Part shown: in pieces, positions 4,090-53,878 of the stretch
Layout of the letters: each line of letters begins with the position of its first letter
Position numbering within the stretch: position 1 is the first letter of the stretch
Source: Asterias amurensis
Taxonomy: Eukaryota
NCBI RefSeq assembly: GCF_032118995.1
Contig: NC_092655.1
Span: 14,589,223-14,653,222, forward strand
Reading direction: 5' to 3'
Length of the DNA stretch: 64,000 bases
Notes under the pieces: model-generated
Database searches by the model: none
Told to the model about the DNA's origin: nothing
The model's input: only the letters and a program-made list of their open reading frames with translations
Position numbers and translations under genes: made by a program

Positions 4090-4475
4090 TTAAAGACATT
4101 GGAAACCTTTGGTAATTGTCATAGACTAGTATTCTCACTTGGCGTATCTAAACATATGCATAAAATAACAAACCTTTGAAAATTTGAGCTCAATTGGTCG
4201 TCAAAGATGCGAGAGAATAATGAAAGAAAAAACACCCTTGTCACATTAAGTCGTGCGCTTTCTATGCCTTTAATTCGAGACCTCAGCTGAGGTCTCGTAT
4301 TCATTCAAATATTTGAGTGAGAAATTACCTCTTACTCAAAATCTACATTACTTCAGAGGGAGTCATTTCACACAATGTTTTCTACTATCAACAGCTCTCC
4401 ATCGTTTGTTACCAAGTAAGTTTTTATGCCAACAATTGTTTTGAGTAATTACCAATAGTGTCCAGTGCCTTTAAG
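4090..4475 (+). mobile_element. MITE-A full-length copy (~385 bp)
   Basis: ttaaagacattggaaacctttggtaattgtca...central hairpin ttcgagacctcagctgaggtctcg...gagtaattaccaatagtgtccagtgcctttaa. 28 bp TIRs. Confidence 0.8.
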
Positions 4476-4701
4476 GGACAACATTACTTCTGGGACATGG
4501 CTCTAAACACTTCCAGAACATAATACACCGATCCATTAAGCCAGGCCCAATTGTCATTGACCAATCACAACCACGAAATCTGATCACCATTTGAACCGTT
4601 TGGTGATCTTTGCACTAATGGTGATCGGGTTTCGCGGCTGTGATTGGTCAACTGGTAAGGAGGCGGGGCGTAATGGATCGGTCTATTGGATGATAGATTA
4701 C

Positions 4702-7244: not shown

Positions 7245-7610
7245 CTTTAAAGGCAGTGGACACTATTGGTAATTAAACAAAAAAATTATTGCCATAAAAC
7301 CTTACTTGGTAACAAGTTCTTATGGGGAGAGGTTGATGGTATAAAACATTGTGAGAAACTGCTCCCTCTGAAGTGCCATAGTTTTCGAGAAAGTAATTTG
7401 CCACGAATTTGATTTGAAAACCTCAGATTTAGAACTTGAGGTCTTGAAATCAACCTAACGCACACAACTTTGTTTGACAACGGTGTTTTTTTCTTTCATT
7501 ATTATCTCGCAACTTCGACGACCGGTTTGTTATGTTATGCATTATATGTTGAGATACACCAACTGTGAAGGCTAGTCTTTGACAATTACCAATAGTGTCC
7601 ACTGCGTTTA
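7245..7610 (-). mobile_element. MITE-A full-length copy, upstream of the SFXN first exon
   Basis: ctttaaaggcagtggacactattggtaatt...ttgacaattaccaatagtgtccactgcgttta. Internal hairpin aacctcagatttagaacttgaggtc. Confidence 0.8.
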
Positions 7611-12058: not shown

Positions 12059-12341
12059 TTTTTACATCACCGGATGAGTTTTCCTCCATGAGGGCTACGG
12101 CTGATATTCCCATTTTCCGTAGGGACGCGACTTGATCAGCCATCAAAGCCCTCAAGGGGGAGATGACAAGTGCAACACCACCATCCTTTAAAAGTGGTGG
12201 TATTGCAAAAGTCAAAGTCTTCCCGAAGCCAGTGGGAAGAACTCCCAGAACGTGTTTTTTATTTACGATGTGTTGTACAATTCTCTCCTGTTCGTCTTTT
12301 AATTTCGAAGGCAACAAGGGATACTGTTTTTTTAACTTGTC
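12059..12341 (-). CDS. RecQ-family (superfamily 2) DNA helicase-like exon covering motifs 0, I (Walker A) and Ia. It is either an exon of an unresolved gene or a relic/pseudo-exon.
   Basis: Translation DKLKKQYPLLPSKLKDEQERIVQHIVNKKHVLGVLPTGFGKTLTFAIPPLLKDGGVALVISPLRALMADQVASLRKMGISAVALMEENSSGDVK. Compare RecQ LKKYFG..FRPGQ.EAI......D..V.MPTGGGKSLCYQLPALL..G...VVSPLISLM.DQV..L...GI.A..L. Strong donor AAA|GTAAGT at 12058/12059. In-frame TAG at 12342-12344 immediately upstream, and only weak, purine-rich acceptor candidates. Confidence 0.5.
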
Positions 12342-13084
12342 CTATGCAGCTTCCATTTTTTTTTTCGGTAACCATGCTGCAGTGACTGGAACAATAGCTG
12401 TGATTTCGTTTTGCTACATACTTGCTTGCATATCATTGCATGTAAATTTAGTTGTTTATAGTGGCTCCAAATTGATTAAAACAACCTTAGGTTGGTAGAC
12501 GTTTAACGATATTTTAAATGCCCTAAATAAACAGAGCTTCTACAACGCACTCGATCACAACCCCAATACATGTACCTGGGATGGTCAAACGAAATCACTC
12601 AAGACAAAATAAGTTTGTCAGAGATCAAGCACAGACTTTAAAAATGTCATAAATATACACAGATAAGTTTAAAATACAAGATTATATAATACAATTGTTT
12701 TAGCGGGTCATTTTCATATCTATAGACATAGAGTGAGGAAGCTTTTTTTACAAGTAAAGCGAGCACAGAAACTCAAAGGTCCTTTTTCGAAACCATGGCG
12801 TCGGCTTACGGTTCTTGCCGCAAGTTTACTATTCCTTATTTATTCTTCCGATGTACTTTTTACATTGTATTATTATTACTCACGTGCTCACGGCGCTTTA
12901 CATTTACAAAAGTAGGCCTCGATTAGAAATAAACAAACCGGCAGTTCACAACACTTTCTTTAAAAAATATTACATAAAAAAAGGGGCACTATATAAATTA
13001 CAAAAAGAACAAATTGAACTGGACAAACGAAGCAGAAATATTAATGAAAATACAAATGATAAAAACAATTATGAAATTGAAAGG

Positions 13085-13646
13085 CATGTAGGTCACGTGA
13101 TCATACGTAAACATTGGTATCGCAATCGGTCTGTTCATGGTGTATTCACAACACTTTCTTAAATAAAAAAAGACACTATATAAAATCCAAAAAAGATTGC
13201 AAATGGAACTGGACAAACGAATAAATAATTGATGAAAATACAGATGAAAAAAAAAGGAAATCAAAAGACATGTCATCAGGGCCCGTATATAAAATAGGAC
13301 AATGCACTGTACATGTACATGATATGCACCACAGTACTGTACACCATGTATATGTACACACACGTGTACTGTGTTGTTGCTGATAAGTATAACATCCCGT
13401 CCGCCCGTGTAGTGATGTGAGTCCGCAAGCGGGAATAGCCTCAGACCGCACATATGTGCACAGTTGCCGGGCTACACAAAGCACCCCACGTACTGCCACG
13501 ACCTTTTGAACCACACGTCCCACACATACAGCCGAAGCTCCGCCCCACGCAGGTTTGACATTTAAACCTGTGAATCGCTCCGATTCTGGTAAGTTTTTGT
13601 CCATTTTTCTTCGAAATATTTCCTCAATGGTGTTTTGAGTATTTTG
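13085..13646 (-). repeat. Arm 2 of the inverted segmental duplication. The adjacent segment 13647-13870 is a DIRECT copy of 7857-8180.
   Basis: 13651-13715 (ttggtcccagtatttacgggcagctaggttagcttcatcatgttagtcttatactctaac) matches 7861-7925 in the same orientation. The two duplicated blocks therefore have opposite relative orientations. Confidence 0.8.
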
Positions 13647-16094
13647 AATAATTGGTCCCAGTATTTACGGGCAGCTAGGTTAGCTTCATCATGTTAGTCT
13701 TATACTCTAACGCTCAGCTAAACAAGTTACTACAAGTTGAACTACCAAACGCTTCTGCTTATGCTGGTACTCATCTGCTCAATCGATCGTAGGCCTACGA
13801 CAGTAGGCCTACCCACGTCAATCAATTCAATGCACAATGCCAATGCTGTACAGTGTATGTATACAAAATGGTATACTAAAACTAGTCATATTTATTCACC
13901 CTATTCACAGTGTAGAACGTAGCTGTAACAAGCATAATTCAACTAATAAATAGACCAAGTTTAACAGAATCATACTCATCTTCGACGAACCTTAATAATG
14001 TTTCATTACCTGGTTAAAAGCCGGTAATTAATGTAGAATCTTTAGCAGTTGCAGTTTACGTCTTTCCACCCGGTGTTCATGTGACACTGGCAGGCGCCCT
14101 CTAGTGTCTACGTGTGGTGCATTTTCTTTACCGATGATTGGTCAATTTGGGGGTGTGTCCGTCGGGGGCACGTCGCGACCCCCCCCCCCCCCCCCCGGAC
14201 AGCCCGCATTTCTGTTAGCCGCTCATTTTGTGGGAAAGTTTGGGGTGTTTTGGGCCACAGAACTCTGGGTGAATAAGCTAGCAATTCACGGCGGCTGGCT
14301 AAACCAGTTCATTTATGTGTTTCGTGCGCAAGCGAAGTTTATCAGGTAAATATATTTAACTTTAGAATCACCCTGTAATTAATATTGACAGACTATGGGA
14401 ACTTAATGTTGAAAACTTTTTTTGTGACGTTTGTGTATAATCAAGATAAACTCTCGCTAGAATTCCAATCATTGTTGGTCCTCGAGTATAAAATGAGGAG
14501 GGGGGGGGGGCGTGATTAAGCTAGGTTGTTCTTGTTTTGTCTACCACCAGAAACACCACCCCCACGGATGGAGCAGTACTATACAAAAGTGCAAATTCCC
14601 AATAGGAAATACACAATCTGAAAACCGTTACTGCGGTAACGTTTCTCATTTTCAAAATTGTGGGGTATGAAAAATATATTTGAACAGAACCACATTACTT
14701 TGAAGTAAAAATGTTTCTCAAAATGATTTGCGGATACTATCTAAAGCTGGTATAGGCTTCGATGCAATAGTTTGTATTGCCAAAACTTCAACAGGTTTGT
14801 CAGTTTACGCACATGTATGGATTACATACATCGCATCTGGTATATCATTTATATTTATTAATATTAATATTTATCTGGTTTATGTTTATTTAAAAGTGCA
14901 GTTTTCAAAAGAGTCTTAAGTTTCTCAAATGTATGCTTAGCAGAATCCATCCAAATTCCCGAGTCACTACATGTTATGCACCATGTGCCGCGACTGGTAT
15001 CCTAGGTCTGCAATTAGCAGGGGGTAATTATAAGCAATACTTTCTGCTAAAGCAGCTATATGAAGTAAAGCCAATTAGACCCTATTGCATAGACTACCAT
15101 TGCTGAGGGAGGAGGGGGGGGGGGTCGATTTAGGATTGTGACACACAGAGCTCACTTGGGCAGTGGGACCTTCAAATTAAAGGTACAGTACACAAAGTTT
15201 AAAAAGAAAACAAAAATCGTATTTATTACTTGACAAAGATTAAGGATAACAATTAATAAACTTTACTAAAACTGCCTGTGACAAAATGTCTGCGGACATA
15301 CAATACAATTACAGGCAATAATCAAATTTGGTCATTATGGTTTTTAAACTGGCTTTAATATTTTTCTTTTAAATATCTATTGTACACTGTTCTTATTAAT
15401 TTGGTTTGGCAGAGTAGGCCTACATGGTAGTCTGAAATACATGCTGATAACAGGTAAGGGGAAAATGACAATGTTAAAGTGTTTTTGCTAACTATAAACC
15501 ACAGGTAATTTTAAACACTTCCCACATCATTTGAATCAGTTACTTTTTTAAAGATGATACAATTATACAGGTACAACTAAAAAGACACAGAGCTCATTTG
15601 GGCAGTGGGACCTTCACAGGTATACAAAATTCAACAACAAAGACATGACAAGAGCTAAACGACGATGATCACTCACCCTCTCGTGGTGACGCCATGCACC
15701 TAGTGCCAGCCAAGTGACCTACTCGACAAGCAGGGCACTTGGGACTGACCCGTGAGTGAGCCCCGGGAATGACGTCAAAGCTATTCGAACTTGCACCGGG
15801 GGAAGACCGGGGTCGACCCAGGGAAGCTAATCGAACGCACACTGATCGCTTGTTGCATGTATAAGGCAATACAAAATATCAGTCATCGCAGTACGTAGAC
15901 TCGCTACACTGCTTTGAGCAGGTTCTTCCTAAGAATTGCTTGTGTTTGCTGACATTATGGTGACTATTGTACAACGAACGTTTCACAATGTGTTATTCTT
16001 CGGCCCAGTCTAATCCAGCGTGTAAGGACAAAAACTTGCTACTTAGCATAATACTGCTGAGCCAAATGCCAGTGAAAATTGCCAGTGAAAATTC

Positions 16095-16570
16095 CATTAG
16101 AGTTCGGTGGTGCCGGTGTGGATGCAATTGTGTCCGCCATGCAATAGTGTCTGCTCCGGACACTTGCATATGCAATCGTGTCCGGGGCAATGTAAAAACC
16201 GTCCGGCGGACATGTACATGACATGCAGCTGTGCATGCACTGAACCTACAAGCAGCATGTATATTCACGTATTTTATGATTGCAGCGAATACCCAACGAC
16301 CGAACATTTCCCATGTCATTCATGACATGCACTTAGCTTGTAAAATACATGGCGAACGTGTTTCGTCGACCAAGGGCGTTTAATTTACTGCAAGGACGGC
16401 TTGCACGGGGGCGGACACAACTGCATATGCAAATGTGTCCGGGCGGACACAATTGTATTATGCAGCAGCGTCCGGGCGGACACAATTGCATATGCAAAAC
16501 CGTCCGGCGGACATTATTGCATATGCAATAATGTCCTCTGGATAGTATTGCATAGAGGACATGATTGCAT
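16095..16570. repeat. Minisatellite of ~30-35 bp units with a palindromic TTGCATATGCAA core and GTCCGGGCGGACAC motif
   Basis: Tandem array: cggacacaattgcatatgcaaatgtgtccgggcggacacaattgtattatgcagcagcgtccgggcggacacaattgcatatgcaaaaccgtccggcggacattattgcatatgcaataatgtcc. Diverged units begin at 16095. Confidence 0.7.
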
Positions 16571-17105
16571 GCGACACCGGCCCCACTACATTTTTTGCTT
16601 AACGCAAGACATTTTTTCAAGCAGTAATTTTTGCTTGAAATCGGGCGGTGTTCAACTGTGAATTCTCTGTTTTCGTTCAGCATACCCTTTGTTTTGTTTA
16701 AAAGCTCAACTTTATATAATGATACTTTATTTGGCAATTCATTGGAAGTATGCTAGTCCCTACTGCTTTTTGTGCCACTGCACTTGGCCCCACCCCCTCA
16801 AATGTTAATATGCCTGAAGCAAAACTACACTCCCTGCAAAAACTGTGGTGTTAAAATTGACTCTGTTGGTGTTGTCACATTATAAATTCAGACAAAAAGA
16901 AAACACTAATGTCTGCCAACTCTATTGCATAACTGTTGTTTATAAAAAAAAAAAAGTTTGGTGTTAGTTTTAAATATTTTTTATGTGACAACACCCATTG
17001 TGTCAATAACACACAAGAGACGACCAGAGTCTGCTCAAAACGCCGAGACCACACCGGTGATGTGTCTCAGGGAATTCTGTCACCAGAAGATTCTGTCCCC
17101 CATAG

Positions 17106-17484
17106 TGGTGCGTTCGTTTAGCTTCCCTGGGTCGACCCCGATGTTGCGTATTTTATTTTTTTCCAGGACGAACGTGGGCACACAATTACCCCACGTTCGT
17201 CCTCGAACCAGAAAAAAAAACCCAGACACGTCACCACGTGAGCCTTCCCGTGGTGACGTCAGTGCACCTCGGGCCAGCCCCAAGTGACCCAATCCACAAG
17301 TGGGGCTCTTGGGGCTGGCCCGAGGTGCACTGACGTCACCACAGGAAGGCTCACGTGGTGACGTGTCTGGGTTTTTTCCTGGTTCGAGGACGAACGTGGG
17401 GTAATTGTGTGTCCACGTTCGTCCTGGAAAAAAATATAATACGCAATATCGGGGTCGACCCAGGGAAGCTAAACGAACGCACCC
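17106..17484. mobile_element. ~380 bp near-perfect palindrome ('PAL-E'), a hairpin/foldback MITE
   Basis: ggtgcgttcgtttagcttccctgggtcgaccccg...ccaagtgacccaatccacaagtggggctcttgg...cggggtcgacccagggaagctaaacgaacgcaccc. Short 150 bp version at 39901-40052; half copy at 15687-15845. Confidence 0.75.
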
Positions 17485-18276
17485 AAAATTATTGGAAACT
17501 GAGGATGATTCAAAAGAGGGCGCTATCAGAAGAAGTTCGTACACACAGTTTCGGGGATTCAGAATTTCCTGCCACACCGGCTGTTTTCAGAACACTCTCC
17601 CGCAAAATATATTTACAGCTGTCCCCGCAAGCTTACTATTTGTTTATAGTTTTTTCCTAAACCATGCAAAACTTCAAACAATACTTACACAAGTTTTTGA
17701 AGTTTGTAGGCCTATAAAACATAGGTAAAAGAACTCACTCATAGCCTCGGTTATGTTCAAGGACAAAAAACCCGTAAGTAAAGATGTCTCCTCGACAAAC
17801 TCTCGCTCGTACCCCCCTTCGGGAGCTTGTTACGAGCTGCAATTAGTTGACCGAACGTGTCACAGCCGTGCAATTTCACAATCACGTATACCCTTGCGGC
17901 TACTCGACATACGCGTACATCATGATGGAATCAAGGTGAGCAAAGCTACACAAAAGTAACCCCGCCGGGTTCATTCAAAGATGATGCGACGATGGACTCG
18001 TAATCACAGATCAACAAAGATGCGGGTGGGATGTGGATGAACTCAACGAGGACTAGAAGGCGACGGGGGAGGTTATTTCTGGTATATTATGAAGCTACAA
18101 AAACCACGAGGGAGTTTAAGTCATTGTCAGTCCATCCAAATCTGTTTTTTCCACGCAATTATACTCAAGGACCAATATTGTGATTGGAATTCTTACTAGC
18201 AAGATGCGTTATTAGCGGAAGGGGCGTTAGACCCAAATTATTGGAATAAATCAATTGTGTGGGATGGGGAGTCCTC

Positions 18277-22529: not shown

Positions 22530-22901
22530 TTAAAGCCATTATACACTTTCGGTAAACAGTATTGTCCAAGTCCCACACTTCGTGTATCACAACTTATATA
22601 TAAAATAACAATCCTGTGGAAATTTAGGCTCAATCGGACATCGGAGTCGGGAGAAAATAACGGGAAAACCCACTCCTGTTTTCGCGCGTTTCGCCGTGTC
22701 ATGACATGTGTTTATAACAAATCCGTAATTCTCGTTAACGAGAATTTATATTGTTTTACCGTTTTCTTAAAAAGTAAAGCATTTCATGGACTAATATTTC
22801 AAGAGAAGTCTTTCACCATTACCTTCTGTAAACCCTGTAAATTATTTGTAAATCTGTGAACTTTTTTTTTTTTCTGTACCGAAAGGGTCCAATGGCTTTA
22901 A
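22530..22901 (+). mobile_element. MITE-B copy (~375 bp), TIR ttaaagccattatacactttcggtaaacag / ctgtaccgaaagggtccaatggctttaa
   Basis: Shares an internal core with MITE-A (cacttcgtgtatcacaacttatatataaaataacaa.cctgtg.aaatttaggctcaatcgg.catcggagtcgggagaaaataa). Other copies at 26743-27119 (-), 42470-42844 (-) and 47162-47497 (+). Confidence 0.75.
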
Positions 22902-25915: not shown

Positions 25916-26742
25916 ATAAACATCACTTTCAAATTAGCATTGTAGAGACTATGAACAACTAAAAGAGAGAGAATCACTGATTACAGAAGAATAGCAACAT
26001 GGCTATTGTCTTATCTGACACAACGATGGCGTCACCACTATTATTAGTTCACAATGAGAGATCCATTAATTACCCAAAGAATGTTCCGCGTCATTAGGTA
26101 CCAGAGGGGATTTGAACAAAACTAGTATTTCATCGACTACACCAGTATTTCAGACAGGAATGGTTCTTTGGGCAATGGTAGGCCAACTGGTTTAAATGTT
26201 AAAACCAATAGATTTTCAGATATTTTGATGATTTACCACATATCGAATAATACAAAATATTGTATTTCGAATAATATCATAAGAGGGCGCTATGGACCAT
26301 GTGTATAGACCTTACCGCAAATACTCTGTACGCGCACAATATACGTGGAATGAGGTACATGCTGGTCGAGCTAGCTATCAAATTTGATCACTAGCTAGAC
26401 CAGCATGCACCTCATTCGACAGTTTGCGCTTGCGCAATGGTATTTGCTAAAAGGCCTATGGGACTGACGACAAACCAGGGCGTCAACATAACGGCCACCA
26501 ATTACACGTGGATCGATAGGCGGTATCAATTAATACGAACACGGTTTATAACTCACTACAGAAGTCAGATTCAGGGTCTGGAACAATCTATCATTTGAAA
26601 TGAATGGTGTAGTTATGGCAAATGGGTGTCAATTTCAAAGAGCCTCTGGGAACGGTATAAGACACAGACGAGAGAAGCGGTCTAGCTACAGCCGCACAAT
26701 TAAGCAGGTAATAATGTAACCGAGCCCGTGGGCAGGGCACAT

Positions 26743-27119
26743 TAAAGCCATTATACACTTTCGGCACAGACAAAAAAAAAGTTCACGGATTTACAAATAA
26801 CTTACAGGGTTTACAAAAGGTATTGGTGAAAGACTTATCTTGAAATATTATTCAATGAAATGCTTTACTTTCCGAGAAAACATTAAAACAATTATCAATC
26901 CTCGTTGTAGAGAATTACGGATTTATTTTAAACACATGTCATGACACGGCTATATAAACGTGCGGAAACAAGGGTGGGTTTTCCCTGTTATTTTCTCCCG
27001 ACTCCGATGACCGATTGAGCCTAAATTTTCACAGGTTTGTTATTTGATATAGAAGATGTGATACACGAAGTGTGGGGCCTTGGACAATACTGTTTACCGA
27101 AAGTGTCCAATGGCTTTAA
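26743..27119 (-). mobile_element. MITE-B copy
   Basis: ttaaagccattatacactttcggcacagac...ctgtttaccgaaagtgtccaatggctttaa. Confidence 0.75.
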
Positions 27120-28094
27120 ACTGGCGAGTGACTGGTAAACACTTAACCGTTACTGCAACGAGTTCCACCACTTTACCGTTGCTGTCTGAGTTTCTGGGCG
27201 AATATTCCGTCTATATTGTCTAGGTCTTGTGTTTCCAATGGAAAGCTCCAACGAGGTCAAACACCATAGGCGGTTCGGTGTAGAAAAGCAGAATATGCGA
27301 CCACAGGCTCTAGGCATAATCGACTATTACTAAGTAACTCATAAGATCAGAAACAATCGAGGGCCAAAGGATATTATCTCTGCACATGTACTTTCTTTTT
27401 GGCATGTTCTTCTTCTTATTTTGTGAGGGGAGGCGGGTTGCAATCCTTTTCCATACCACACGCTGGCCATCGCATACACGCATAAGGTATGGGCGCTTTC
27501 CCAGGGCCCAATTTCATAGAGCTGCTTAAGCAAAAAATTTTGCTTAAGCAAAAAATTCATTGCTTAGTAAAATCAGATTACCGGCCAAGACTCCACTCAA
27601 TTGCAATGCTAAGTAAACAACAGCTTAATACTAGTCTTAAGCAATGTATATGGCAGGAAATTACAAAGGTTTCAAAACATTGTACAAAAACGTCAGAGAA
27701 TAAACAAAAAATACAGTAACGTATATAAGAACAACATGGCTTTGAAGGATTCAATAGATGATAATAAGAGATTAAAGAAGACGTTTAAAGTGTTCTACAA
27801 GTAAGCAGCAGAATTGTGGATTTCCAGTTTTGACTAGTAGCTGAATAAATCTGATGATTCACAATGAACTCGTCATCTAGTATTGATATTTCCATTTCGT
27901 GTATTTACCACGTGCATGGTGACTATCACGTTCACTGATAGTGATATTTTCCTAGACGGCCGAGAGTGATGACTGCACGACGCTCTAATGAATATTGATC
28001 AGTGAAAGTCACCAGCAGAACACACGTAACCGATGACATACCATGTTGTCAATGGTTCCCTCACCTCACACATGCGTGTCCATAAAAGCAATTG

Positions 28095-28260
28095 GCCAAC
28101 TACGGCCGTCATTCGGAACCTAGCCAGCTAGCGAAACGGGCGACTCAGACACGGTCGCGGGCAAGAGGGGGTTCCGTTTTTGGCACGTTCCGGCTCCGCG
28201 ATTTCTCAAATTAACCTGGATTCTAGGATCAACTGTCGATATCGACGTGCCACAATATGT
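28095..28260 (+). promoter_or_regulatory. CpG-rich candidate promoter / 5' region of the GPCR gene
   Basis: Locally CpG-dense (cggccgtcattcgg...gcgaaacgggcgactcagacacggtcgcgggc...ccggctccgcg) about 450-600 bp upstream of the ATG. No TSS can be fixed from sequence alone. Confidence 0.25.
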
Positions 28261-28710
28261 GCATGGATCCATCGCTGTCAAGTCCAGAATCATACCATGC
28301 TGCTATGTGTTTTATGTAAACATCTTGTCGAGTGCACTCAGCGTGCGGAGAGAAGAGAGTTGCCGCGTTTAGTCACCAAGAAATATGTCTCTGTTCTAAC
28401 TGTTTTCGTTCGCACGTTTATATGATTTCCTGCTTGATCAAACACGACTGTTCAGTTTAACTCGGTCTGGAAGATTTGCAGTGGCGGAATTTATGAGGTT
28501 ATTTGCGAAAGTGAGTTGTTTTGCTCTTTACCAACTCCCTGGAAACGGTGTGTCTCGAAATGCACAGAAGACGACTTACGTTAAGAACAGAAACTTTGGT
28601 TATGAAGAATTAAAAGTCTGGTGAGTCAACAAGGAAGTTTGAAGTCTCAAACAATATTTTGCAATCATTTTGCAAATCATTTAAAAGGAAAGTTTGGTAA
28701 CTTTGGCAAA

Positions 28711-29736
28711 ATGGATTGCATGGATACAGCCTCGGATAGTTTCTCCACCAATTGTTCTTTGGAGAATTGCACAGAAGAGGAGACTACGAAGTCGGTGACA
28801 CAAATTCGAGATTGGGTGGCGGGAATTTTTCTTCTAATCGTCTGCATAACGGGTCTGATTGGCAACAGCATGGTCATCTTTGTGGTGCTACGCTACGCCA
28901 AAATGAAAACCGTCACCAATTTGTACATCTTGAATCTGGCCATAGCCGATGACCTGTTCATGATCGCCCTTGTGTTTTTGTCTATTGCTACCCTGGCGGG
29001 TAACAATTGGATATTCGGCCCCGTTCTGTGCCATGTGGTCTACGCAATTGACGGTCTCAACCAGTTTACCAGCGTGTTTTGCCTGACCGCCATGAGCATG
29101 GATCGCTACGTCGCCGTATGCCACGCTCGAAGGGTCCGCGGGTATCGGACTCTTCGCCTGGCAATCTGCGTGAACTTCGGCGTATGGTTCCTAGCCCTTG
29201 CCGCTGCCAGCCCGATGAATATAGTGACACGGTACACCGTTTACAACGGTACACCAGTGTGTTATTTCAATTTCGAGTCTGTATTCGGTAAAGACGCCGT
29301 CGTCATAACTCAGAAACTGTTCATGATTTACACGACTTTGATGGGACTTGTGATTCCTTTAGTCATCATTTCCGTGTGCTATTCGAGCATTGTGGTGCGC
29401 CTCAAGAAATTAGGAACCCGCACGGGAAAGATGAAGAAATCTCGAAAGGTAAACCGTGTAGTGTTTTTTGTAGTGCTCGCCTTCTTCATGTGTTGGTGGC
29501 CGTTTTATGTATGGCGAACTATAGTGGTGTTTGTACCGTGCCTTGCGCAACAGTGGTTCAATGGCCTCGTACTTGACTTTACAATGTGTTTGGGTTACCT
29601 AAACAGCTGTGCAAATCCACTCCTCTACGGATTCCTTAGCGGGAACTTCAAAAAGAGTTTCCGTAAAGTGTGGAACTGTACACAGGAAACGGAGATACAA
29701 AACGGTCGACGCCGTGCTCCGGCCCAGCCTATGTAA
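28711..29736 (+). CDS. Intronless class-A (rhodopsin-like) GPCR of the somatostatin / allatostatin-C receptor type, 341 aa from the first ATG.
   Basis: Single uninterrupted ORF with seven predicted hydrophobic TM segments. N-terminal N-glycosylation sites (NCS, NCT). TM2 NLYILNLAIADDLFM (SSTR: NIYILNLAIADELFM). DRY motif MSMDRYVAVCH. TM6 FMCWWPFY. TM7/helix 8 NSCANPLLYGFLSGNFKKSF (SSTR: [20 protein letters not shown]). The ORF-track start at 28621 is a GTG; the first in-frame ATG is 28711. Stop TAA at 29734-29736. Confidence 0.85.
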   Translation: MDCMDTASDSFSTNCSLENCTEEETTKSVTQIRDWVAGIFLLIVCITGLIGNSMVIFVVLRYAKMKTVTNLYILNLAIADDLFMIALVFLSIATLAGNNWIFGPVLCHVVYAIDGLNQFTSVFCLTAMSMDRYVAVCHARRVRGYRTLRLAICVNFGVWFLALAAASPMNIVTRYTVYNGTPVCYFNFESVFGKDAVVITQKLFMIYTTLMGLVIPLVIISVCYSSIVVRLKKLGTRTGKMKKSRKVNRVVFFVVLAFFMCWWPFYVWRTIVVFVPCLAQQWFNGLVLDFTMCLGYLNSCANPLLYGFLSGNFKKSFRKVWNCTQETEIQNGRRRAPAQPM

Positions 29737-29948
29737 TGTTTGATCATAGTCCATGTGAAAAAAAAAGGTTCCAGAAGTACCATACCACTTTATTCGGATA
29801 ATAAGTCAACTTATGTTACGGAAAAAGCTGACTTGTCTTGATAATATATCTCGCCAAGACATCTTATTTTGTGGAATAAGTCGAGTTGGCATAGTATTTA
29901 TTCTCGCCAAGACGACCCATTGAACCATAAGAATCCGACTTACCACAT

Positions 29949-30110
29949 CTGCCGCCGATTTCACCAAACTATGTCTAACTTTAGGAATAATCTTAGGACT
30001 TTAGGACGAGTTGAATTCCGTATCCATAGACGTAAGGATGTTGAACCCATCCTTGTTTACTCGTCCTACGAGATGGGATTAATCCCAGCGTTTTGTGAAA
30101 TCGGCTGCAG
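29949..30110. mobile_element. MITE-H (~165 bp) in the GPCR 3' flank, TIR ctgccgccgatttcaccaaa / tttgtgaaatcggctgcag
   Basis: Internal motif ttaggacgagt.aactcgtcctaa. Further copies at 63453-63623 (hairpin form) and 57117-57245 (fragment). Confidence 0.7.
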
Positions 30111-30168: not shown

Positions 30169-30556
30169 TTAAAGGCAGTGGACACTATTGGTAATTGTCA
30201 AAGACTAGCCTTCACAGTTGGTGTATCTCAACATATGCATAAAATAACAAACCTGTGCAAATTTGAGCTCAATCGGACATCGAACTTGCGAGATAATAAT
30301 GAAAGAAAAAAAACACCTATGTCACACGAAGTTGTGTGCGTTTAGATGGTTGATTTCGAGACCTCAAGTTCTAAATCTGAGGTCTTGAAATCAAGTTCGT
30401 GGAAAATTACTTCTTTCTCGAAAACTATGGCACTTCAGAGGGAGCCGTTTCTCACAATGTTTTATACCACCAACCTCTCCCCATTACTTGTCACCAAGAA
30501 AGGTTGTATGCCAATAATTATTTTGAGTAATTACCAATTATGTCCACTGCCTTTAA
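30169..30556 (+). mobile_element. MITE-A full-length copy ~430 bp downstream of the GPCR stop
   Basis: ttaaaggcagtggacactattggtaattgtcaaagactagccttcacagttggtgtatctcaacatatgcataaaataacaaacctgtg...gagtaattaccaattatgtccactgcctttaa. Confidence 0.8.
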
Positions 30557-31586: not shown

Positions 31587-31975
31587 TTAAAGACAGTGGA
31601 CACTATTGGTAATTACTCAAATTAATTATTAGCATAAAACCTTACTTGGTAACGATTAATAGGGAGAGGTTGATAGTATAAAACATTGTGAGAAACGGCT
31701 CCCTCTGAAGTGACGTTGTCTTCGAGAAAGAAGTAATTTTCAACGAATTTGATTTAGAGACCTCAGTATTAGATTTTGAGGTCTCGAAATCAAGCATCTG
31801 AAAGCACAAAACTTCGTGTGACAAGGGTGTTTTTTTCTTCCATTATTATCTCGCAACTTCGACGACCAATTGAGCTCAAATTTTCACAGGTTTGTAATTT
31901 TATGTATCTGTTGAGATACACCAAGTGTTAGAAGACTGGTCTTTGACAATTACCAATGGTGTCCAGTGTCTTTAA
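31587..31975 (-). mobile_element. MITE-A full-length copy
   Basis: ctttaaagacagtggacactattggtaattactcaaattaat...ttgacaattaccaatggtgtccagtgtctttaa. Confidence 0.8.
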
Positions 31976-36715: not shown

Positions 36716-37104
36716 TTTAAAGACAGTGGACACTATTGGTAATTGTCAAAAAACAGTCTTCTCACTTGGTGTATCTCAACCAATGCATAAAATTAAAAAC
36801 CTGTGAAAATTTGAGCTTGATTGGTCGTCAGAGTTGCCAGATAACTATGAAAGAAAAAAAACACCTATGTCACACGAAGTTGTGTGCGTTTAGATGGTTG
36901 ATTTCGAGACCTCAAGTTCTAAACTTGAGGTCTCGAAATCAAATTCGTGGAAAATTACTTCATTCTCCTGAACTAGGTCACTTCAGAGGGAGCTGTTTCT
37001 CACAATGTTTTATACCATCAACCTCTCCCCATTACTCGTTACCAAGTAAGGTTTTATGCTAATAAATATTTTGAGTAATTACCAATAGTGTCCACTGCCT
37101 TTAA
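36716..37104 (+). mobile_element. MITE-A full-length copy
   Basis: ctttaaagacagtggacactattggtaattgtcaaaaaacag...gatttcgagacctcaagttctaaacttgaggtctcgaaatc...gagtaattaccaatagtgtccactgcctttaa. Confidence 0.8.
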
Positions 37105-37463
37105 ATATCTGTGTTTAAACTTTAAAATCAACGGGTATGAGCTGGTGATGTATACAGCATTCGAAATTTCAAAGACAAGTAATATTATTTCACCAAATTG
37201 GATAATACCATCAAGGGTTTCAAGTAACACGTTCCCTTGGAAACTGAACGACCCGGGAATTCTTAAAAACGAGAAACCATTACAGACGGCGTATCGTGTT
37301 TAATCAATCCGAAGGTTTACGGAGTTTGTATGGTAATAAACTAATCATTACAAAGATTGTGAAGGACGTTGTTGGAGAATTTTAATATAAATCACCTTTT
37401 ACATAAATATTACACCAAAGTAGATGCTTGCGTTTTCATCACTGCATAGGTCAAGCCTTATTC

Positions 37464-42469: not shown

Positions 42470-42844
42470 TTAAAGCCATTATACACTTTCGGTACAGAAT
42501 TTTTGTTTAAAGTTCACAGATTTACAAATAATTTACAGGGTTTACAGAAGGTAATAGTGAAAGACTTATCTTGAATAATTATTCCATGAAATGCTTTACT
42601 TTTTGAGAAAACATTAAAACAATATCAATTCTCGATAGCGAGAATTACGGATTTATTTTAAACACATTTCATGACACGGCGAAACGTGGGGAAACAAGGG
42701 TGGGTTTTCCCGTTGTTTTCTCCCGACTCTGATGACCGATTGAGCCTAAATTTTCACAGGTTTGTCATTTTATATATAAGTTGTGATACACGGAGTGTGG
42801 GCCTTGGACAATACTGTTTACCGAAAGTGTCCAATGGCTTTAAA
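42470..42844 (-). mobile_element. MITE-B copy
   Basis: ttaaagccattatacactttcggtacagaattt...ctgtttaccgaaagtgtccaatggctttaa. Confidence 0.75.
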
Positions 42845-45606: not shown

Positions 45607-46004
45607 ACGAGTTGGCCTTTATACTATTGGTAATTACTCAAAATAATTGTCAGCATCAAAACTTATTCGGTAACGAGCAATGGAGAGCCGTCGATATTAT
45701 AAAACATTGCGAGAACGGCCATCTCTGAAGTAACGTAGTTTTTGAGAAAGTAAATAATTTATCACTGAAATATTTGATTTGAATTCGAGACCTCAGCTGG
45801 GGTCTCGAATTCAAAGGCATCCGATGAAAGCACACAATTTGTGCGCCAAGGGTGTTTTTTCCATTCATTATTCTCTCACAACTTCTGTTACGACAAATTG
45901 AGTTATAAATTTCCAGGGTTTGTTATTTTATGCATATATATGTTGAGAACACAAAGTGAGAAGCCTGGTCTTTTACTATTACCAAAGGTGTCCAGTGTCT
46001 TTAA
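45607..46004 (-). mobile_element. MITE-A copy, head-to-head with the next copy and sharing its terminal TTAA
   Basis: ggcctttatactattggtaattactcaaaataattgtcagc...ttactattaccaaaggtgtccagtgtctTTAA. Confidence 0.75.
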
Positions 46005-46389
46005 AGGCAGTGGACACTATTGGTAGTTGTCAAAGACTAGTCTTCACAGTTGGTGTATCTCAACATATATGCATAAAACAATTAACCTGTGAAAATTTGA
46101 GCTCAATCGGTCATCAAACTTGCGAGATAATAATGAAAGAAAAATAACCCTTGCAACACGAAGTTGTGTGCGTTTAGATGGTTGATTTCGAGACCTCAAG
46201 TTCTAAACTTGTGGTCTCGAAATCAAATTCGTGGAAAATTACTTCTTTCTCGAAAACTATGGCACTTCAGAGGGAGCCGTTTCTCACAATGTTTTATACC
46301 ATCAACCTCTCCCCATTAACTCGTCACCAAGAAAGGTTTTATGCTAATAATTATTTTGAGTAATTACCAATAGTGTCCACTGCCTTTAA
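46001..46389 (+). mobile_element. MITE-A full-length copy, head-to-head with the previous copy
   Basis: TTAAaggcagtggacactattggtagttgtcaaagactagtcttcacagttgg...gatttcgagacctcaagttctaaacttgtggtctcgaaatc...gagtaattaccaatagtgtccactgcctttaa. Confidence 0.8.
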
Positions 46390-47161: not shown

Positions 47162-47497
47162 TTAAAGCAATCGCACAACATCGGTAAACAGTATTGTCCA
47201 GAGGCCCACACTTCGTGTATCACAACTTATATATAAATAACAAACCTGTGAAAATTTAGGCTCAATCGGTCATCGGAGTCGGGAGAAAATAACGGGAAAA
47301 CCCACCCTTGTTTCCGCACGTTTTGCCGTGTCATCGAGAATTGATACTTGTTTAAATGTTTTCTCATGTAAGCATTTCATTGAATAATAATTTCAAGGGA
47401 AGTCTTTCACGATCACCTTCTGTAAACCCTGTAAGTTGTTTTTAAATCTGTGAACTTTTAATTTTTGTTCTGTTCAGAAAGTGTGCAATGGCTTTAA
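47162..47497 (+). mobile_element. MITE-B copy (diverged 5' TIR)
   Basis: ttaaagcaatcgcacaacatcggtaaacagtattgtccagaggcccacacttcgtgtatcacaactta...ctgttcagaaagtgtgcaatggctttaa. Confidence 0.7.
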
Positions 47498-52004: not shown

Positions 52005-52123
52005 GAGTATGCAGGATTGGTAAGGGCAAAACACACTGGTTAAGTTTAATCTGAAAGCTAATACTGATAATACGAAGTTCATACTCGAAATATAGTGATT
52101 ATGTGAAATATTTCCCTCTGAAA

Positions 52124-52507
52124 TTAAAGACAGTGGACACTATTGGTAATTGTTAAAGACTAGTCTTCACAGTTGGTGTATCTCAACATATCCATAAAAT
52201 AACAAACCTGTGAAAATTTGAGCTCAATCGGTCGTTGAAGTGGCGAGATAATAATTAAAGAAAAACACCCTTGTCACGCGAAGTTGTGTGCTTTCTGATG
52301 CTTGATTTCGAGAGCTCAAATTTTAAACTTGAGGTCTCGAAATCAAATTCGTGGAAAAGTACTTCTTTCTCGAAAACTACGTCATTTCAGAGAGAGCTGT
52401 TTCTCACAATGTTTTATACTATCAACCTCTCCCCATTACTCGTAATCAAGAAAGGTTTTATGATGATAATTATTTTGTGTAATTACCAATAGTGTCCACT
52501 GCCTTTA
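52124..52507 (+). mobile_element. MITE-A full-length copy
   Basis: attaaagacagtggacactattggtaattgttaaagactagtcttcacagttgg...gtgtaattaccaatagtgtccactgcctttac. Confidence 0.8.
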
Positions 52508-53437: not shown

Positions 53438-53525
53438 ATGGTAGGGCCATGGAGCTATAGGTCTATTTAGCCTCATGCACTCGCTCCTCTCTTGTTCATC
53501 TCTAGTTATTTATTTGTAATTTGCT

Positions 53526-53878
53526 TTAAAGGCAGTGGACACTATTGTTGTATATATATCAATTATATAAAACCTTACTTGGTAACGCGTAATGGGGAGC
53601 TGTTGATAGTATAAAACATTGTGACAAAAAAGCTCCCTCTGAAGTAACGTAGTTTCGAGAAAGAAGTAATTTTTCACGAATTTGATTTCGAGACCTCACA
53701 TTTAGACCTTGAGGTTTCGAAATCAAGCATCTAAACGCACACAACTTCGTGAGACAAGGGTGTTTTTTTCTTTCATTATTATCTCGCAACTTCGACGACC
53801 AATTGAGCTCAAATTGTCAAAGGTTTGTTATTTTATGTACATGTTGAGATACACCAAGTGAGAAGACTGATCGTTGAC
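53526..53878 (-). mobile_element. MITE-A copy (3' end diverged)
   Basis: ctttaaaggcagtggacactattgttgtatatatatcaattatataaaaccttacttggtaacgcg...gtttgttattttatgtacatgttgagatacaccaagtgagaagactgatcgttgac. Confidence 0.7.

Follow-up and report, generated by a model that had tools for sequence, protein, structure and literature searches.

A single-exon gene of the starfish Asterias amurensis very probably encodes the ortholog of the somatostatin-type receptor ArSSR3

A 64-kb stretch of the Asterias amurensis genome (64,000 nucleotides of contig NC_092655.1, positions 14,589,223 to 14,653,222 of the forward strand; hereafter the window) contains an intact gene for a rhodopsin-class G protein-coupled receptor (GPCR), which we call SSR3. 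Our results make it very probable that window positions 28077-29969 (+) are the single-exon A. amurensis ortholog of ArSSR3, a reading that includes, as a proposal, binding of an SS2-type peptide, a ligand pose, and coupling to Gi/o. ArSSR3 (GenBank MN251833; 341 amino acids [aa]) was cloned from Asterias rubens by Zhang et al. 2020 (Open Biol, PMC7536072) and is one of the three somatostatin (SS)/allatostatin-C (ASTC)-type receptors, ArSSR1-3, cloned from that species (PMC7536072). The A. amurensis gene is itself already known, being annotated in NCBI. The initial annotation of this DNA, made from the sequence alone, had presented it as a candidate, a status that has lapsed given the NCBI entry and the ligand published for the sister species.

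The coding sequence (CDS) occupies 28711-29736 (+) and consists of an uninterrupted run of 341 codons followed by a TAA stop, in a single exon. Position 28711 holds the first in-frame ATG; reading 5′ from there, an in-frame stop is reached after 31 codons without a further ATG, and the program-called open reading frame (ORF) opens 5′ of this ATG, at GTG 28621. By chance, approximately 1e-7 open runs as long as this one would be expected (six frames, 64 kb, window composition). The CDS is the only long ORF in the window, the runner-up encoding 165 aa. The clean 341-codon single-exon ORF described in the initial annotation is therefore confirmed, both by its first ATG and by the small number of such runs expected by chance. 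ORF analysis, Pfam, PDB and protein database searches, and pairwise comparison all bear on this feature. The top database match, NCBI XP_071793466.1 (“somatostatin receptor type 2-like” [Asterias amurensis]), is 100% identical to the window protein over 341 aa, and its 90% cluster also holds A. rubens XP_033633252.1/QIM61772.1, named “Somatostatin receptor 3” in UniProt.

Protein searches placed the product among somatostatin receptors. The Pfam profile PF00001 (7tm_1) matched with 198.3 bits (E=2e-58, cut-off 30.5), with profile positions 1-260 of 260 aligned to residues 51-306. In a phmmer search of PDB, the best match was human SSTR2 (243 bits, E=5e-71), which aligned from transmembrane helix (TM) 1 to helix 8 (residues 34-334). 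Human SSTR4, 5, 1, and 3 came next (221-232 bits), with the mu, nociceptin, delta, and kappa opioid receptors behind the SSTRs (182-195 bits). When 5.8 billion proteins were searched, every named protein among the 120 matches listed was a somatostatin receptor. The Pfam and protein database searches are checks that the initial annotation had itself proposed. Together with the PDB search and the 98% identity to ArSSR3 (PMC7536072), their results bear out its assignment of an SSTR/ASTC-type rhodopsin-class GPCR in an invertebrate.

The protein also carries the sequence signatures of this receptor type. The TM7/helix 8 signature Y-x-N-S-C-A-N-P-x-L-Y-x-F-L-S-x-N-F-K-x-S-F is present (YLNSCANPLLYGFLSGNFKKSF, aligned with its SSTR2 counterpart); Y296 (7.43) and NSCANPLLYGFLSGNFKKSF (aa 298-317, window 29602-29661), which includes NPxxY, together span 29596-29661 (+). 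Motif inspection and alignment also located LNLAIADDLFM in TM2 (aa 74-84; 28930-28962 (+)), which includes D80 (2.50), and DRYVAVCH (aa 131-138; 29101-29124 (+)), which holds the DRY microswitch with R132 at 3.50. In TM6, FMCWWPFY (aa 259-266; 29485-29508) contains the toggle switch W262 and F265 (6.51) and is followed by R269 (6.55), so that the feature extends over 29485-29517 (+). These four motifs are where the initial annotation had put them. The microswitch residues D80, D131-R132-Y133, C261-W262-W263-P264, and N302-P303-L-L-Y306 are kept, as are P5.50, F6.44, and the disulfide cysteines C107/C184 (C3.25 to extracellular loop 2 [ECL2]). The N-terminal glycosylation sites that had been listed correspond, by motif, to the sequons N14 (NCS) and N19 (NCT) at 28750-28767 (+), and a further sequon, N179, is in ECL2. 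Seven TM helices are supported by the continuous alignment to SSTR2 from TM1 to helix 8; a simple hydropathy scan alone gave five strong segments. TM3 and TM7 were placed by alignment, and the hydropathy scan was not used as evidence by itself. For ArSSR3, Protter predicted seven TM helices (PMC7536072).

We considered whether the protein could belong to a neighboring type of peptide GPCR (opioid, MCH, urotensin II [UII], galanin, kisspeptin, or NPBW) that resembles SSTRs in short motifs only. The high scores of the opioid receptors in PDB would fit such a reading, as would the finding that the position of echinoderm receptors relative to SSTRs plus opioid receptors, or to ASTC receptors, varies with trimming of the alignment (PMC7536072). 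However, all five human SSTR subtypes scored above every opioid receptor, by ~26-60 bits, and the named proteins among the 120 database matches were SSTRs throughout. In published maximum-likelihood trees rooted with galanin and kisspeptin receptors, ArSSR3 is inside the SS/opioid/ASTC clade and apart from the MCH and UII clades (PMC7536072, Fig. 3, Fig. S5). An “echinoderm SS2 receptor” was placed in the SS/ASTC/opioid clade in a second phylogeny too (PMC9048919). Moreover, ArSSR3, the 98%-identical ortholog, is activated by an SS-type peptide (PMC7536072). Membership of a neighboring receptor type is thus exceedingly improbable. We conclude that the window protein, as judged from its sequence, is a member of the SS/ASTC-type receptors and of the echinoderm SSR3 orthology group.

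SSR3 is an intact gene under purifying selection. Comparison of the window protein with A. rubens QIM61772.1/XP_033633252.1 revealed 335 identical residues out of 341, with no gaps. The two CDSs share 97.9% identity; of the differences, 15 are synonymous and 6 non-synonymous (dS 0.067, dN 0.0076, dN/dS 0.11). The A. rubens locus (L001) is collinear with window positions ~18.3-30.2 kb (>12 kb), with ~89-93% identity in non-coding DNA. ArSSR3 is like A. amurensis SSR3 in length, start codon, single exon, collinear neighborhood, motifs, and pocket residues. The A. rubens locus differs by two ~56-bp indels in the untranslated regions (UTRs) and by a miniature inverted-repeat transposable element (MITE) inserted in the 3′ flank, which has no counterpart in A. 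amurensis.

Orthology was also examined in a neighbor-joining tree (350 trimmed columns, 300 bootstraps). In this tree, which shows the orthology group and not the family boundary, the window protein grouped with ArSSR3 at 100% bootstrap. The Asterias pair was joined by P0002 (82% identical) at 99%, and an asteroid SSR3 clade that includes the Patiria and Acanthaster orthologs was recovered at 79%. ArSSR2 formed a separate 100% clade with asteroid, ophiuroid, and echinoid relatives, and ArSSR1 was the most divergent sequence. Placement relative to opioid, MCH, UII, galanin, and kisspeptin receptors comes from the PDB score ranks and the published trees. The sea-urchin and brittle-star receptors that we retrieved (P0007, P0011, P0013 region of the tree) all fell inside the SSR2 clade (100%), and the SSR3 clade held only asteroids and two metagenome/Logan sequences (P0005, P0006; 55% identity). 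Echinoids may lack SSR3, or the search may have overlooked it.

The relatives of SSR3 differ from it to varying extents. The orthologs of Patiria miniata (P0003) and Acanthaster planci (P0004; XP_022080909.1, table of PMC7536072) are ~76-78% identical, have 344-350 aa, and fall in the same clade; their N-termini and ECL2 differ from those of SSR3, and in both, M replaces Q3.36. In Acanthaster, the CDS is also a single exon, without a called gene within ±10 kb, and DNA conservation with the window is limited to the CDS. The paralogs ArSSR1 (346 aa) and ArSSR2 (418 aa) are receptors of this type too and, like ArSSR3, have ArSS2 as an agonist, but they are only 35% and 43% identical to the window protein, respectively, and belong to separate clades. 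ArSSR1 has ERY where SSR3 has DRY, and ArSSR2 has a long C-terminal tail. The A. rubens genome has no such genes beyond ArSSR1-3, which map to three separate chromosomes (PNAS 2022, PMC8851493).

Human SSTR1-5 (SSTR2 structures: PDB 7WIC/7XAT/7T10) are ~42% identical to SSR3 over TM1 to helix 8. They share the TM7/helix 8 signature, the D3.32/Q3.36/F6.51/Y7.43 core, the microswitches, and the conserved disulfide. Unlike the human receptors, SSR3 has Arg rather than Asn at 6.55, the changes W197F, I195F, and Y205Q among ECL2/TM5 contacts, and a shorter C-terminal tail. SSR3 is co-orthologous to vertebrate SSTR1-5 and is not a “type 2” ortholog; the NCBI name “type 2-like” is due to the best BLAST hit only. 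The protostome allatostatin-C receptors (Drosophila AstC-R1/R2) belong to the same SS/ASTC/opioid clade according to published trees (PMC7536072, PMC9048919). ArSSR3 does not respond to the starfish ASTC-type peptide (PMC7536072).

To delimit the transcription unit, we took the ArSSR3 transcript from supplementary Fig. S8 of PMC7536072, read by optical character recognition (OCR), and compared it with the window using blastn. The transcript aligned as three collinear blocks (28077-28457, 28514-29754, and 29811-29941), with a tail to ~29969. As read from this alignment, SSR3 is one exon that spans a 5′ UTR of at least 634 nt, the CDS, and a 3′ UTR of at least 233 nt. The 5′ UTR (28077-28710 (+), minimum extent) is collinear with the 571-nt 5′ UTR of A. 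rubens ArSSR3. The 3′ UTR (29737-29969 (+), minimum extent) includes a 56-bp species-specific segment at 29755-29810. The description of the gene as intronless is thus correct for the CDS and for as much of the UTRs as the A. rubens transcript spans.

A second 56-bp segment lies in the 5′ UTR (28458-28513 (+)) and is missing from both the A. rubens transcript and genome. The possibilities that the two ~56-nt gaps are tiny introns or lines lost during OCR were rejected. Since neither segment has GT..AG ends and these bases are missing from the A. rubens genome too, the segments are indels between the species.

Both ends of the transcription unit may extend beyond the alignment. SSR3 transcription may start further upstream than 28077. 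The 5′ UTR contains ten upstream ATGs (window 28257-28624), whose ORFs have 1-43 codons and do not overlap the CDS. These ATGs might reflect control of translation; alternatively, the principal transcription start may be nearer the CDS than the assembled transcript implies. No canonical AATAAA was found near or after the end of the aligned 3′ UTR. Because the A. rubens transcript scaffold ends exactly at the MITE insertion, the real 3′ end of SSR3 is probably further downstream. A CpG-rich block had also been reported ~500 bp upstream of the ORF. A GC- and CpG-enriched block does exist at 28101-28300 (GC 0.54; CpG observed/expected 1.26, window mean 0.86), at the 5′ end of the transcribed region. 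However, the enrichment is modest, the block is in the transcribed 5′ UTR rather than upstream of the gene, and a block inside the CDS (29101-29300) is equally CpG-rich.

A single exon in repeat-rich, gene-poor DNA, with ten upstream ATGs and no canonical polyadenylation signal close to the aligned 3′ UTR end, might be taken for a recently retroposed or decaying copy, that is, a processed pseudogene. The intact frame and the dN/dS of 0.11 argue otherwise. Since A. rubens and Acanthaster likewise carry the CDS in one exon, and Patiria has a 76%-identical protein, the gene is old. Vertebrate SSTR coding regions are largely intronless too. The A. rubens ortholog is transcribed in the radial nerve cord, and its protein signals in cells (PMC7536072). 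There is also no multi-exon parent, as A. rubens has just three such genes, each on its own chromosome (PMC8851493). We regard the processed-pseudogene explanation as effectively refuted.

To understand how SSR3 could recognize a peptide, we compared its pocket with that of SSTR2. In SSTR2 structures, Lys9 of the somatostatin Trp8-Lys9 pair is anchored by D122(3.32) and Q126(3.36), and the Trp8-Lys9 side chains pack on F208(5.38), T212(5.42), F272(6.51), N276(6.55), V298(7.39), and Y302(7.43); activation is triggered by Q3.36 and W6.48 (PMC9343605). The equivalents in the window protein are D114, Q118, F204, T208, F265, R269, M292, and Y296. Six of these eight Trp-Lys pocket residues are the same as in SSTR2 (D114, Q118, F204, T208, F265, and Y296), while N6.55 is replaced by R269 and V7.39 by M292. 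The TM3 anchors D114 (3.32) and Q118 (3.36), which align with SSTR2 D122 and Q126 (PMC9343605), are encoded at 29050-29064 (+). Since the pocket core and the microswitches are kept, the receptor would retain the core for binding the Phe-Trp-Lys (FWK) turn of SS2 and for activation.

Position 6.55 (R269, window 29515-29517) is Arg or Lys in all echinoderm receptors examined (SSR1, SSR2, and SSR3 clades). Vertebrate SSTRs and a hemichordate receptor have Asn or Gln at this position. The echinoderm receptors with Arg or Lys include ArSSR1-3, all of which respond to ArSS2 (PMC7536072). That R269 pairs with the Asp just before FWK in ArSS2 (ADFWKG) is speculation.

A model for SSR3 function is that the receptor would bind the disulfide-bridged SS-type neuropeptide SS2 (A. 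rubens: RAKNARCMADFWKGRGLVDC). The Phe-Trp-Lys turn of SS2 would enter the helical bundle, with Lys held by D114(3.32) and Q118(3.36) and the Trp and Lys side chains set against F204(5.38), T208(5.42), F265(6.51), and Y296(7.43). The agonist would then shift the W262 toggle switch and the DRY and NPxxY microswitches, and a heterotrimeric G protein would be activated. By analogy with ArSSR3, A. amurensis SSR3 is likely to have the same SS2 pairing, and by analogy with SSTR2, its binding pose would resemble the SSTR2 pose. We infer that native coupling is of the Gi/o type; the published ArSSR3 assay used the promiscuous G-alpha-16 in CHO cells (PMC7536072).

The ligand data for A. rubens come from published assays (PMC7536072). 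The SS-type peptide ArSS2 (RAKNARCMADFWKGRGLVDC) activates all three receptors, with EC50 values of 8.8e-11 M for ArSSR1, 4.2e-12 M for ArSSR2, and 1.4e-9 M for ArSSR3, while the ASTC-type peptide ArSS1 (KCIGRFQPFSMPC) activates none of ArSSR1-3 (PMC7536072). The candidate SS/ASTC-type pairing of the initial annotation thus stands for the SS-type peptide on A. rubens ArSSR3 and fails for the ASTC-type one.

These values also raise the question of whether SS2 is the natural ligand. SSR3 could instead be the physiological receptor of ASTC-type SS1 or of another ligand, with SS2 a weaker, cross-reacting agonist and an accessory protein absent from CHO cells possibly needed. ArSS2 acts on ArSSR3 at 1.4 nM, versus 4.2 pM and 88 pM on the paralogs, with ~3-fold lower efficacy (PMC7536072). 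Furthermore, the ArSS1 receptor was not identified as of PMC8851493, and our literature search found no later paper that names one. However, ArSS1 elicited no response from ArSSR3 up to 1e-4 M (PMC7536072), the Trp-Lys anchors that would fit the FWK motif of SS2 are all retained, and an EC50 of 1.4 nM is well inside the range of cognate neuropeptide-receptor pairs. We therefore consider another physiological ligand to be quite unlikely. The corresponding hypothesis for the family, in which SSR3-type receptors mediate the excitatory action of ASTC-type SS1 or of another ligand via an accessory protein or a different G-protein context and the SS2 response in CHO cells is cross-reactivity, is likewise a long shot.

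Several observations count against our identification of SSR3 as an ArSSR3 ortholog that is paired with SS2. The protein differs from ArSSR3 by six substitutions (Y111F, V183L, V250L, A279G, R333Q, and Q339H); these are conservative, and none falls on an examined pocket residue. The neighbor-joining tree covered SSTR-type receptors only, and in the published trees the place of the echinoderm receptors within the SS/opioid/ASTC clade shifted with alignment trimming (PMC7536072). Among the SSTR2 contacts, SSR3 carries R at 6.55 (N in SSTR2), M at 7.39 (V in SSTR2), F in place of both W197 and I195, and Q in place of Y205. Because several contacts differ, an identical binding pose should not be assumed. 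Lastly, ArSS2 is ~16-fold more potent on ArSSR1 and ~330-fold more potent on ArSSR2 than on ArSSR3, where its efficacy is ~3-fold lower (PMC7536072). Since ArSS2 is weaker on ArSSR3 than on the other two receptors, SS2 may not be the sole or main physiological ligand. Even so, orthology with ArSSR3 and pairing with SS2 remain the reading that we strongly favor.

The DNA around SSR3 is rich in repeats. Intra-window repeats make up 26% of the 64 kb and are mostly two related MITE-like families, in agreement with the transposable element-rich intergenic setting noted at the outset by the initial annotation. Family A elements are ~390 bp long with 28-nt terminal inverted repeats (TTAAAGACAGTGGACACTATTGGTAATT), and the window holds 33 copies or fragments with 68-90% identity. 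The reference copy is at 31587-31975 and has an internal 17-nt hairpin at 31749-31793. Repeat comparison placed one family A element at 30169-30556 (-), ~200 bp 3′ of the aligned 3′ UTR, and others at 36717-37105(-), 46001-46389(-), 52123-52507(-), 53524-53878(+), 4090-4484(-), and 7245-7610(+). Family B elements are ~378 bp long with 23-nt terminal inverted repeats (TTAAAGCCATTATACACTTTCGG). One, identified from repeat comparison and its inverted repeats, flanks SSR3 at 26742-27119 (strand not assigned), and repeat comparison revealed further copies at 22530-22901(-), 42470-42844, and 47162-47497(-). The two families share a ~130-bp internal 3′ module, which suggests related autonomous elements as their source. 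We found no transposase ORF in the window.

In A. rubens, a family B MITE directly follows the ArSSR3 3′ UTR (L001 11250-11623), and the orthologous A. amurensis site (window ~29981) is empty. Because the element is at this site only in A. rubens, it was active, or was excised, after the species split.

Other parts of the window yielded few features. A tandem repeat at 16409-16554 consists of ~4 copies of a 31-32-bp unit (GGGCGGACACAATTGCATATGCAAAAGCGTCC) with a palindromic core and lies within 16001-18000, the 2-kb bin with the highest GC content in the window (0.456). Besides the CDS, the window has 19 ORFs of 110 aa or more; Pfam searches of 15 of them (the others being 110-118 aa) revealed no significant family and one sub-threshold, low-complexity S-antigen match. 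Four overlapping ORFs of 111-151 aa are crowded on both strands of the 1.4 kb at 12163-13604; three were scanned, with the sub-threshold S-antigen match (E=0.006). This region is probably compositionally biased DNA and not a gene. Rfam searches at the gathering threshold and an ARAGORN tRNA scan detected nothing in the window, and tblastn revealed no second GPCR copy or fragment there. No other called gene lies within ±10 kb of the SSR3 locus in A. rubens or Acanthaster.

Our analysis adds little beyond confirmation, since the A. amurensis gene was annotated and the near-identical ArSSR3 had been cloned, placed phylogenetically, and paired with a ligand (PMC7536072). The Pfam and BLASTP searches, a phylogeny with neighboring families, and a heterologous calcium assay with SS and ASTC peptides were already published for this 98%-identical protein. 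What it does provide is a confirmed SSR3 ortholog in A. amurensis, an invasive pest sea star in which SS2 signaling could in principle be studied. SSR3 is also one of just three candidate GPCRs for how ASTC-type SS1 acts in echinoderms. If SSR3 were to prove a mediator of SS1, this would explain how echinoderm ASTC-type peptides signal.

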